49,852 bases of DNA from a virus (IMGVR_UViG_2913167280_000010:1-49852); one strand, 5' to 3'; positions 39,809 through 42,057 are shown, counted from the stretch's first letter. The notes: generated by a model not told the origin, from the letters alone. Program-made: numbers and translations.

Positions 39809-40615
39809 TTACCCCCTGAAGCCTGGCGGGATCGCACTATCCGGTAACGAGACGGTGTTAACCTGTCGGAGTAACGTCTCAGGTCGAACACCTTTCGGCG
39901 CGAACAAGCCCTGGTATTCATTGGCGATGCTGTGTCGAATCACCTGCTCAGGTGAAAAACCCTGCTGGCGGAATTTTTCCAGCTCCCGTATCGCCCCGTT
40001 AGCGCCCTGCTCCGTTCGAATCGGTTTACGCAATGCCTGGCGAAATTCAACCCACTCACGCCAAAGCGAGACAGAAATCCAGTTCGGCAAAGCAATATCC
40101 AGAGGGTCAAACTTTTTGACACCTCGATTTCCCCGGGGGGGATTTAGGGGGGGATCTGTTTTTAGATCTTTATCTGTATCTTTATTAGTTGCCTTTGTGT
40201 TGACATCATGTTCAAACACCACTTCAACATCTGTTTGAACACCTGTTAAATTTCTCTCTTGTTTTGTTTGAACATCTGCTTCCTTTCTGCTTCTTCTGGC
40301 CTGAACAGATGCTTTTCCTGCGGCTGATTTTTTGGTTAATTTTTCCCTGACTGATGCCAGATCTTCCTCAATCCGAAGATGCACCCATTCCTCGCCGTTA
40401 TCGCAAAAAAACTCCCGCAAGGATGGTTCAACATCAGCCCATCGCTCGTTAGTCAGACGGGCAATTTTTGCCAGCCTGTTTTTGGGTATTGGCTTTCCTG
40501 TTTGCCAGTAATTGAACATCAGCAACAAATACGCACCGTGCTCCTCTGCTGACAAATGCATGGTGTCAGCCAGGTAATCAGCTATGTACAGTTGCATATA
40601 TGGTAATGCGGCCAT
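39809..40615 (-). CDS. Replication initiation protein (O-like / YdaU-like)
   Basis: Track ORF trimmed to the ATG at 40615 (MAALPYMQLYIADYL...); immediately upstream of the DnaC-like gene. Confidence 0.65.
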   Translation of the reverse strand: MAALPYMQLYIADYLADTMHLSAEEHGAYLLLMFNYWQTGKPIPKNRLAKIARLTNERWADVEPSLREFFCDNGEEWVHLRIEEDLASVREKLTKKSAAGKASVQARRSRKEADVQTKQERNLTGVQTDVEVVFEHDVNTKATNKDTDKDLKTDPPLNPPRGNRGVKKFDPLDIALPNWISVSLWREWVEFRQALRKPIRTEQGANGAIRELEKFRQQGFSPEQVIRHSIANEYQGLFAPKGVRPETLLRQVNTVSLPDSAIPPGFRG

Positions 40616-40694
40616 AATTGCCTCATCTGGTGCCGAACCTTCCTCCGGATATAATCTGTGATTCCCCAATCAACAGAACCCAAGGAGGTTCGAC

Positions 40695-41150
40695 ATGTCT
40701 TTAATGGCTGTTTGCCAAAAAATTAAAAATCACATGCGCACTGTGTACAAAATTAACCAGCACGACCTCGACATGATTAACCTGGTAACATGCAGAGCTA
40801 TAGTTCTCACCCGCTTCCATCTGATTCTTGCAAATCACTCACGGGATTCTCTCCTGAGCCCCAGTAGCTATGATTCGCTGGCGAGATTGCTATACCAGGC
40901 AAGTGAAAAACGTATTACTGATCCCTTATCTGTTTCCCCTGTCCTTGCTCTTCACATTCTGGAAGACGCTCTCTATGACCCCCGTCAGGAATGCGACTAT
41001 CAATTTCTTGAAGCTGAGAAATCAATGAGAGAATGGTTCGTTGAATATCGAGAACGGCAGCAAAAGTTACCCTCAGAGTATTCAGAACTTCCGCAACTTC
41101 GCTGGAGTGACCTTCCGAACGAATTATTTGCTCTGACCCCAGAAAATTAA
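40695..41150 (+). CDS. Hypothetical 151-aa protein encoded antisense within the replication operon
   Basis: Perfect Shine-Dalgarno AAGGAGGT 5 nt before the ATG; divergent from the O-like gene start; stable hairpin 27 nt after the stop; no family recognised. Confidence 0.55.
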   Translation: MSLMAVCQKIKNHMRTVYKINQHDLDMINLVTCRAIVLTRFHLILANHSRDSLLSPSSYDSLARLLYQASEKRITDPLSVSPVLALHILEDALYDPRQECDYQFLEAEKSMREWFVEYRERQQKLPSEYSELPQLRWSDLPNELFALTPEN

Positions 41151-41176
41151 TTCTTGGGGATAAATCGTCCATAACT

Positions 41177-41200
41177 GAGCGCAGGCTAAGTTCTGCGCTC
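41177..41200. other. Perfect 8-bp stem hairpin downstream of the plus-strand ORF
   Basis: GAGCGCAG-GCTAAGTT-CTGCGCTC; no U-tract on either strand. Confidence 0.4.
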
Positions 41201-41347
41201 TGAAGCTTCCGAACCGAAGTTTCTGTACCCCAACCCGCAATTTCTGCATTTTTTGCAAGTTTCAGGATCCAGTCTCGTAGTTCGCCGGGAGTAAGATTTC
41301 CAGCATTGATAAACGGTTTGATTTTCATTGTTAGTTACCCTATCCAC

Positions 41348-41770
41348 TTAATGAACAATGACAGAATCGTCGGAAGACCCGCCGCCGCTGAAATGCGCTT
41401 TCTGGTAAACGGCCTGGACTGCATCATCATGCGCATCAATTGCCGTACTCAACGCTTCCTGCGCCGCCAGTAATGCACGGCGTTCCAAGGTATCGAAGAT
41501 GCAGAGTCGGTGACGCAGCTCGCGCGGAAGGATTGCCAGAATTGCAGGGATCAGTTTCTGAATTTTTTCCCTTTGCGCTTCCGTTTCACCTTTTAACCAA
41601 CGGTGATAGATGTTCTGCTGATTATTCCAGTCCTTGCCTGGTACCAGGGGCAATTCGCCGCCCCCCTGGCGCAGATATTCTTCAGTAATTGCGTTAGCGA
41701 CCCACGCCTGCCCTTTTTCAGCGGCTAGGGCTAACAACACTGATTCGATGTGCTCATGCCTGATTTTCAT
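41348..41770 (-). CDS. YdaT-like protein (140 aa; second gene of the cro-side operon)
   Basis: Size and position match Rac ydaT directly after the cro/ydaS-like gene. Confidence 0.55.
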   Translation of the reverse strand: MKIRHEHIESVLLALAAEKGQAWVANAITEEYLRQGGGELPLVPGKDWNNQQNIYHRWLKGETEAQREKIQKLIPAILAILPRELRHRLCIFDTLERRALLAAQEALSTAIDAHDDAVQAVYQKAHFSGGGSSDDSVIVH

Positions 41771-42029
41771 GAATCAACTCCTGTGCATTTTGTGTGTTAG
41801 CCTTACATCCAACAGGTAAACCATCGGTCGGATTCGGGTAGATATCAGGCCGGAGTTCATGAGGTGTAACCTCGAAATTCGTAGCCTCTGCGATACGCAA
41901 TACCTTTTCAGGACTTAACTGACTACGTCCAGTAGCAACGAGGCTAATCATTGATTGCGAACAACCAGCCAGCGCGGCCAAACAAGACTGTCGTACACGA
42001 TTTTTTTTCAAATATTCATCTAATGTCAT
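41754..42029 (-). CDS. Cro/YdaS-like HTH regulator
   Basis: Track ORF trimmed to the ATG at 42029; HTH segment QSCLAALAGCSQSMISLVATGR; divergent from the repressor gene. Confidence 0.6.
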   Translation of the reverse strand: MTLDEYLKKNRVRQSCLAALAGCSQSMISLVATGRSQLSPEKVLRIAEATNFEVTPHELRPDIYPNPTDGLPVGCKANTQNAQELIHENQA

Positions 42030-42057
42030 AAGGGTCACCTTAGTAATGTTTACCAAA

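Follow-up and report, generated by a model that had tools for sequence, protein, structure and literature searches.

We analysed a 49,852-nucleotide stretch of viral DNA (IMGVR_UViG_2913167280_000010, positions 1-49852; hereafter the window), in which two convergent open reading frames (ORFs), one of 151 amino acids (aa) on the plus strand and the other of 137 aa on the minus strand, lie between the ydaT and ydaU genes of a Rac-like prophage. With a probability of roughly 0.6, we read this insert as a two-gene convergent cassette which would be protein-coding on both strands and whose two units would antagonize each other by convergent transcription. Both ORFs are very probably genes, and selection is likely to act on both frames where they overlap. 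Judged by these comparisons, about 78 codons are read on both strands and an either/or reading of the two ORFs, in which one is the gene and the other its competitor, is wrong. All of the evidence for the dual-coding pair is comparative. The elements on which the argument depends are as follows.

40634..41346: module of 713 bp that has no counterpart in K-12 Rac, between ydaT (41770..41348, minus strand) and ydaU (ATG at 40615, minus strand).
40695..41150, plus strand: plus gene, encoding a protein of 151 aa, predicted all-helical, with the C-terminal motif LPELxWxDLPxELF; un-annotated in E. coli by the Prokaryotic Genome Annotation Pipeline (PGAP).
40682..40689, plus strand: Shine-Dalgarno (SD) sequence AAGGAGGT, followed by TCGAC and the ATG, hence 5 nucleotides (nt) before the ATG.
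40915..41328, minus strand: minus gene of 137 aa in the early lytic operon; a hypothetical protein in PGAP (WP_000695003.1 family, phrog_37051).
40915..41150, both strands: putative dual-coding overlap of 236 nt, in which plus codons 74-151 correspond to minus codons 60-137.

The comparison covered divergent DNA from Serratia, Salmonella, a P2-like Salmonella prophage, Trabulsiella, IMG/VR and metagenome contigs, and further database loci. Thirteen lineages keep the pair in the same phase, with 151-157 aa for the plus ORF, 110-149 aa for the minus ORF and an overlap of 158-272 nt; the overlap, 236 nt in the window and 158-272 nt in the twelve other lineages, is well above the 90 nt on opposite strands beyond which we count an overlap as long. 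Homology of the minus ORF, at 41-47% identity and in the same phase, was observed in every divergent lineage fetched. The most remote loci, reached by profile search with plus proteins only 23-36% identical to that of the window, also carry a homologous minus ORF of 125-149 aa overlapping by 194-272 nt. Both ORFs are far beyond chance expectation. The sequence-only reading of this DNA had treated the minus ORF as a competitor of the plus ORF, and had proposed that its case for the plus ORF would fail if one frame were found under selection while the other gathered stops; this outcome was found in neither direction, as both frames are kept.

In the overlap, plus codon position 1 coincides with minus position 1, plus position 2 with minus position 3, and plus position 3 with minus position 2. 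Given each lineage's plus protein and the codon usage of the family, the probability that the minus frame stays open over 77 codons was computed to be 0.017-0.135 per lineage, and for the four remote groups with one representative each the product (0.135 x 0.017 x 0.031 x 0.030) is about 2e-6. The same frame over the N-terminal half of the plus gene contains 1-7 stops, matching expectation. Between the remote groups synonymous sites outside the overlap are saturated (synonymous divergence, pS, of 0.77 and 0.78), and inside the overlap pS is 0.625 in the plus frame and 0.475 in the minus frame. The fraction of identical residues encoded by the same codon is 0.59 (plus) and 0.70 (minus) inside the overlap and 0.37 and 0.31 outside it. 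Similarity in the minus frame between the remote groups exceeds a null in which synonymous codons were resampled (z = 2.4-6.2, mean 4.05). In a frame control, the frame of the minus ORF gave z = 4.06 and 0 stops against z = 1.3-1.8 and 2.6-5.1 stops per sequence for the four other alternative frames. Synonymous constraint and frame-specific conservation, as expected for a dual-coding pair, are thus both seen, in the same-codon fractions and the frame control respectively.

Outside the overlap each ORF shows a coding signature in its own frame, both in pN/pS (the ratio of nonsynonymous to synonymous divergence) and in codon-position pattern, and each is preceded by an SD sequence. The strongest purifying-selection signal of the locus is held by the minus gene, where the minus-only part (59 codons) gave a minus-frame pN/pS of 0.17 among 20 close variants, the lowest of the six frames (0.61 to 8.7 for the others), with 3/4/11 variable sites at codon positions 1/2/3. 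Among moderately diverged lineages divergence in this part is 0.47/0.37/0.60 at the three minus codon positions, and in the plus-only part it is about 0.42/0.30/0.52 at the three plus positions. The plus-frame pN/pS of the plus-only part is 0.53 among close variants; in deep comparisons the lowest value of the six is that of the plus frame, in both halves of the gene (0.44 in the plus-only part and 0.41 in the other half). The plus protein thus evolves fast in its N-terminal half, yet this half is coding. Close E. coli and Salmonella variants differ at 46 sites within the 219 nt of this half (40695-40914), distributed as 15/13/18 with almost no codon-position bias; such fast change could reflect either relaxed or diversifying selection. 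The earlier view of the plus ORF as protein-coding, and antisense to the early and replication operon, is upheld.

Several observations weigh against the proposed cassette. Neither protein matches a family, defence model or fold with known function, and both structure models are of mediocre confidence, with predicted local distance difference test (pLDDT) scores of 64 and 68. The -35 hexamer of the promoter-like element before the plus gene is poor in the window (CTGGTG) and a consensus promoter scan did not call the element, while a scan for intrinsic terminators finds none after either gene. The last ~25 residues of the minus protein vary in length and are predicted to be disordered, and moderately diverged lineages show only a weak minus-frame excess (mean z = 1.35). 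Finally, the conventional minus-frame pN/pS in the overlap is about 1 (1.05), a value that we regard as uninformative, since each wobble position of the plus frame is a second position of the minus frame, which biases the ratio when the other frame dominates.

The variable, disordered C-terminus and the weak excess over the null would also fit an alternative in which both genes are real and the part of the minus protein encoded in the overlap has no function, being translated only for want of a stop. Its frame would be held open for a non-protein reason, such as keeping ribosomes on the early mRNA so that Rho-dependent polarity on the replication genes is avoided. The minus ORF ends at 110 aa in one locus (L039) and is 8 codons shorter in another (L006), and constraint in the overlap is dominated by the plus frame among moderately diverged lineages, with substitution of 0.24/0.245/0.40 at plus positions 1/2/3. 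We nevertheless regard a functionless tail as unlikely. When remote groups are compared, conservation of minus residues 60-112 lies well above the null, and this is specific to the frame of the minus ORF; for one pair of loci (L004 and L047) identity in the minus frame (26/52) even exceeds that in the plus frame (22/52). The third helix of the minus protein in the AlphaFold2 (AF2) model, residues 75-112, is encoded wholly inside the overlap, and is confidently predicted (pLDDT 76-90) to pack on the helix of residues 35-63. As for polarity, about 220 nt of untranslated RNA lie 3' of the minus stop, before the next gene, so that polarity would not be avoided by an open frame.

If only one of the two ORFs is a gene, the plus ORF would be the first candidate, with the minus ORF a shadow ORF taken up by annotation pipelines. 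The dominance of the plus frame in the overlap agrees with this, as does the perfect plus SD beside a weak minus SD in the window, and the minus copies in protein databases are all close (at least 85% identity) while full-length 151-aa plus homologues were found down to 50% identity. This scarcity of minus entries would by itself favour the plus ORF; it is an artefact, however, because gene callers refuse overlaps, and annotation pipelines in general forbid long antiparallel ones. Against a plus-only locus stand the pN/pS of 0.17 and the 3/4/11 pattern in the 59 minus-only codons, the homologous minus ORF of every lineage, often behind a strong GGAGG, and the stop-free, specifically conserved minus frame, and we consider it very improbable. 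These same points dispose of the earlier idea that the minus ORF is a spurious competitor, its frame in the overlap being both kept open and conserved. The opposite choice, in which the minus gene alone is real and the plus ORF is a chance antisense ORF, corresponds to the RefSeq/PGAP view in E. coli: PGAP annotates the minus ORF alone in all E. coli genomes inspected, and the plus-only half of close relatives has the nearly even 15/13/18 distribution and the pN/pS of 0.53 given above. The plus ORF nonetheless keeps a length of 150-157 aa (145 aa in L140) even where identity falls to 23-36%, and its C-terminal motif is conserved, in a family of 23 protein clusters. It has an invariant SD and ATG, a conserved upstream element and the lowest deep pN/pS in both halves, it shows remote homology to the curated ECs1072 family, and it remains intact in remnants flanked by insertion sequences (IS). 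A minus-only locus can hence be given next to no weight. Both genes being real, the convergent pair remains our reading of the insert.

The sequence facts on both ORFs had been given correctly by the sequence-only reading, namely the plus ORF of 151 aa with an SD 5 nt 5' of its ATG, and the minus ORF (41328-40915) of 137 aa with an overlap of about 236 bp and a weak ribosome-binding site in the window. The latter is not general, as strong minus SDs were found in L007, L032, L045/46 and L056 (GGAGG in several lineages). AF2 models the minus protein as a coiled coil of three helices (residues 14-31, 35-63 and 75-112) followed by a disordered tail; the overall pLDDT is 68 and the helices reach 90. 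The only library match of this protein is phrog_37051, a family of unknown function. The two ORFs are recorded unevenly: in two E. coli genomes inspected PGAP lists a hypothetical protein for the minus ORF and nothing for the plus ORF, one phage record annotates both, and metagenome and other callers mostly record the plus ORF.

The AF2 model of the plus protein is all-helical (pLDDT 64). A profile search of 1.84 billion representative proteins returned only 23 clusters of the plus family, of 148-162 aa and with the motif LPELxWxDLPxELF. No family match of the plus protein was found in Pfam, NCBIfam, PHROGs or PADLOC; the PADLOC models gave only weak matches (E = 0.014-0.039, 11-12 bits), below match level, and profile searches of PDB sequences gave no credible match for either protein. 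A type I toxin-antitoxin pair of the hok/sok kind was considered and rejected, given products of 137-151 aa that read as soluble and helical with no evident hydrophobic span and no Rfam or Pfam match. In one E. coli variant of the plus protein (P0005, NCBI) about 13 consecutive residues inside the conserved C-terminal motif read SSVFRTSATSLRVIF instead of SSEYSELPQLRWSDL, which looks like a compensated double frameshift.

Two further elements lie upstream of the plus gene.

40627..40655, plus strand: putative sigma-70 promoter of the plus gene, with the -35-like hexamer CTGGTG (40627-40632), a 17-nt spacer and the -10 hexamer TATAAT (40650-40655).
40633..40694: leader with nested inverted repeats, CCGAACCTTCC (40633-40643) being complementary to GGAGGTTCG (40684-40692), which includes the SD.

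Conservation is higher in the 70 nt that precede the plus ATG than in either protein. These nt consist, in this order, of TTGGTG or CTGGTG, then the spacer CCGAACCTTCC, then a TAnnnT hexamer, about 20 variable nt and GAACC-(A/G)AGGAGGTTCGAC-ATG, and the stretch (A/G)GGAGGTTCGAC-ATG is close to invariant in all lineages. The promoter-like element is conserved in 14 out of 14 aligned lineages as TTGGTG/CTGGTG with TATAAT/TATCCT/TATTCT, and the weaker hexamers (TAGCCT, TACTCT, TAGCTT) are accompanied by the TG of an extended -10; transcription of the plus gene would start near 40662. An inner repeat (CTGTGATT / AATCAACAG) is nested in the leader, and a local GAACC-N6-GGTTC hairpin contains the SD. 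In the outer stem 94% of cells pair across 14 sequences, in which no formal covariation was found for this stem; some covariation, on the minus strand, is seen in the inner stem. The complementarity is real and may serve an RNA or operator role. Only chance-level matches to Rfam were obtained at a permissive threshold. The window also holds TGATTCCCCAATCAA at 40661-40675, a near-match (TGATT-N4-AATCAA) with a 4-nt spacer to the published YdaT box, TTGATT-N6-AATCAA (PMC9986795, PMC11879457). A YdaT operator was set aside here, since the spacing is wrong and lineages without ydaT differ at this place. A CII-dependent establishment promoter (pE/pRE-like) for the plus gene is likewise less favoured, given that the leader is shared by P2-like prophages and by loci whose CII types are unrelated.

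Downstream of the plus gene two hairpins were annotated.

41177..41200: perfect 8-bp hairpin GAGCGCAG-N8-CTGCGCTC, 26 nt past the plus stop and within minus codons 43-51 (QSAELSLRS).
41202..41223: second 8-bp hairpin, following the first.

The first of these had been pointed out in the sequence-only reading and is present as described. An 8-bp hairpin alone is within chance, with a rough estimate of about 6 per 50 kb. It was found in five of the ten lineages examined (the window group, L004, L006, L007 and L008) and is lost in L032, L034, L039 and L040, where the SAExSLR-type motif of the minus protein, which the hairpin encodes in the window, is largely kept via other codons. A T-tract is absent on either strand at both hairpins. 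The hairpin was therefore rejected as a general terminator, having no T-tract and being absent in about half of the lineages; it is probably incidental and may at most be a local RNA-stability element.

The gap between ydaT and ydaU is 12 bp in K-12 Rac, so that the Rac order given earlier, with no gene between the ydaT-like and the O-like (ydaU) gene was correct, and the roughly 650 bp of unexpected DNA prove to be an insertion of 713 bp. In BLAST comparisons with K-12 the Rac homology ends at window 41347 on the ydaT side and starts again at 40633 on the ydaU side, leaving 40634-41346 as extra DNA. The whole cassette was found in 22 of 5426 complete E. coli genomes, which together with its absence from K-12 Rac gives the presence/absence pattern of a moron; E. 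coli 06-00048 (NZ_CP015229.1, about 1670698-1671331) is one strain that carries it. The early operon of the Rac-like prophage runs on the minus strand of the window in the order YdaS/Cro-like (42056..41754), YdaT/CII-like (41770..41348), and then a DUF1376/YdaU replication gene and a DnaC-like gene (Pfam). The start of the YdaU gene is probably the ATG at 40615 and not the TTG at 40669 of the mechanical ORF list, because relatives are annotated there (268 aa); the TTG start would cross the conserved leader.

At every locus that was examined, the early lytic operon contains the minus gene, and the plus gene is oriented toward the repressor gene; the orientation in early operons is thus fixed. 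The minus gene lies directly 3' of a cro-like gene in L004-L006, L046 and L047, directly 3' of ydaT in the window and in O157, and within the cox operon in the P2-like prophages L007 and L056. In many cases a 186-CII-like (CP76) gene or replication genes come next. The leader is conserved and portable. The exact motif GGTGCCGAACC-N35-55-GGAGGTTCGACATG (window 40628-40697) was found in 96 IMG/VR contigs (L062-L157), and behind it stand at least ten unrelated ORF types, including family A (that of the window), ECs1072, a family of 97-99 aa, a BssS-family gene (PF13991) and an 83-aa gene. In two Rac-like loci (L158 2596-3144 and L159 2584-3132) an 83-aa plus gene and a 98-aa minus gene occupy the ydaT/ydaU slot behind an identical leader, and this convergent pair abuts tail to tail with zero overlap. 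The leader occurs at 90% identity or more in about 500 of the 5426 complete E. coli genomes, and would mark a hypervariable accessory-gene slot of enterobacterial prophages in about a tenth of them, O157:H7 included. In the literature searched, we found no description of the slot between the lysis-lysogeny regulators and the replication genes as variable. The earlier suggestion of a moron is plausible to this extent, that the same leader heads many unrelated cargo genes at the slot and that the module is an insertion relative to Rac.

GTDB representative genomes and the phage isolate collection each contain a single locus. The latter (L003, PP818812.1) is recorded as 'Actinobacillus phage vB_Apl-pPE4'; its cassette has 97-98% protein identity to the E. 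coli version, with the Rac-like neighbours ydaT, kil and exodeoxyribonuclease VIII, and because of these neighbours its stated Actinobacillus host looks doubtful. In two IS-flanked remnants the plus ORF is intact and the minus ORF is truncated or chimeric. One of them (L039, 430-1060) has IS fragments at its flanks, a plus ORF of 151 aa and a minus stop at the end of the predicted third helix (110 aa). In the other (L008 from Trabulsiella guamensis, 1466-2492), an IS21 element lies upstream of the plus gene and the minus frame of 254 aa is a fusion, near the hairpin, of an unrelated N-terminal part to the C-terminal part of the family. The L008 leader carries two compensating changes in the SD/anti-SD repeat, with a 1-nt bulge offset. 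These remnants, two cases only, fit a plus gene that may be retained by the host and autonomously expressed.

A second plus-gene family was reached through the leader motif, namely the ECs1072 family phage-associated protein (NCBIfam NF033230) of 151-157 aa. Alignment of the two family profiles with hhalign gave a probability of 93.9% (E = 1.5e-7 over 101 columns), a remote homology detectable at the profile level. The window protein itself does not match NF033230 at E <= 1 and stays below its curated cut-off of 70 bits; a family A protein from L047 scores 15.6 bits and the O157 protein 105.7 bits. The ECs1072 leader is about 93% identical to the 70-nt leader of the window. In O157:H7 prophages the ECs1072 gene lies 3' of ydaT, beside the paaR2-paaA2-parE2 / ydaS-ydaT switch, which has been studied with no mention of this gene or of a minus ORF opposed to it (PMC8630535). 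In L160 (NZ_CP038412.1, E. coli O157:H7), the ECs1072 gene (2575-3030, plus strand) is opposed by an un-annotated minus ORF (3223..2714) of 169 aa from its ATG with an overlap of 317 nt; in the coordinates of NZ_CP038412.1 itself the plus gene is at 3506273-3506728 and the minus ORF at 3506921..3506412. Overlaps of 88-106 codons occur at ECs1072 loci, and the probability of an open minus frame given the plus protein is 0.0007-0.1 (about 0.001 in L160). The N-terminal motif of the ECs1072 minus ORF (SPHIWRGGLSDVELAEWL) resembles that of orf137, the minus gene of the window (KPFINAGNLTPGELRDWI). RefSeq keeps only the minus ORF at the window-type cassette and only the plus ORF at the ECs1072 locus. 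As the same overlap recurs in the ECs1072 family, dual coding would be a trait of the superfamily and not an accident of one prophage. The two families are alike in protein size, antisense site after ydaT, leader and un-annotated overlapping minus ORF; they differ in the C-terminal motif, LPPCSExEWD in ECs1072 against LPELxWxDLPxELF in the window family, and the ECs1072 family is itself uncharacterised. An ECs1072 transcript was detected, and was growth-phase regulated, in cultures of O157 Sakai (array table in PMC2241611, the only paper in the literature searched that mentions the gene).

The convergent cassette might work as follows. The minus gene belongs to the early lytic operon, following ydaS (cro-like) and ydaT (CII-like) and preceding the replication genes, while the plus gene, with its own promoter-like element and canonical SD, reads against this operon toward the repressor gene. 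In the lysogen the early promoter would be repressed and the plus gene alone expressed, as a moron-like accessory gene. Expression in the lysogen is suggested by the orientation of the plus gene, its intact state in the IS-flanked remnants and the array signal of ECs1072 (PMC2241611). On induction or infection, early-operon transcription would meet that of the plus gene head-on and the two mRNAs would be complementary over at least 450 nt, so that each unit could damp the other by transcriptional interference and sense-antisense RNA pairing, much as in the oop/cII principle but with a protein-coding antisense partner. We put the chance of mutually antagonistic expression at about even. That the plus gene is a lysogen-expressed accessory gene for exclusion or defence is a tentative suggestion. 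It is similarly speculative to see in the overlap an ancient coupled design, in which a lysogen-expressed effector and a lytic-operon partner, interlocked by about 78 codons, would be co-inherited and expressed in a mutually exclusive manner.

Such an arrangement would mean that the ydaS/ydaT (Cro/CII-like) switch region, itself well studied, contains an antisense transcription unit that has received no study, behind a newly uncovered, conserved promoter-leader that heads interchangeable cargo genes. The un-annotated half differs from genome to genome, and together the halves would form a deeply conserved antiparallel dual-coding pair in a previously undescribed variable slot.

Three known systems invite comparison. 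The position had been likened to that of lambda oop, and the likeness is borne out in that an antisense unit starts beside the first replication gene. Lambda oop, antisense at the cII-O junction, is an RNA of 77 nt that is non-coding and has an intrinsic terminator. By analogy, the plus unit would cover the 3' part of the preceding early gene and it points toward the repressor gene, but it encodes a conserved 151-aa protein, has a 236-nt coding overlap and shows neither a T-tract terminator nor an Rfam match. A short non-coding RNA of the oop type was accordingly rejected for a conserved ORF of 456 nt with an SD and no terminator-like site after it. The cassette resembles prophage morons in being extra DNA relative to K-12 Rac, with its own promoter-like element and interchangeable cargo including a BssS-family gene; it differs from them in that there is no flanking terminator and that a second gene, belonging to the phage early operon, would be dual-coded with the cargo.

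In bacteria and phages long antiparallel protein-coding overlaps are rare, and it is disputed whether they are real. According to its title, one preprint concludes that essential proteins are unlikely to be encoded by long antiparallel ORFs (10.1101/724807). Antiparallel overlapping genes described in bacteria include ano, laoB and asa of enterohaemorrhagic E. coli (EHEC) and two long genes of Pseudomonas aeruginosa (PMC5960689, PMC5810103, PMC6294744, PMC8850804, PMC9927249), which, going by what the abstracts report, likewise share more than 90 nt between opposite strands with one un-annotated partner. Those overlaps are mostly embedded, young where the abstracts state an age (overprinting or 'evolutionarily novel'), and found via expression data. 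Here, two independently anchored genes meet tail to tail in an arrangement that extends across a superfamily to about 25% identity, and the locus, with its sister case in E. coli O157:H7, would be an overlap that rests on deep comparative evidence rather than on expression noise.

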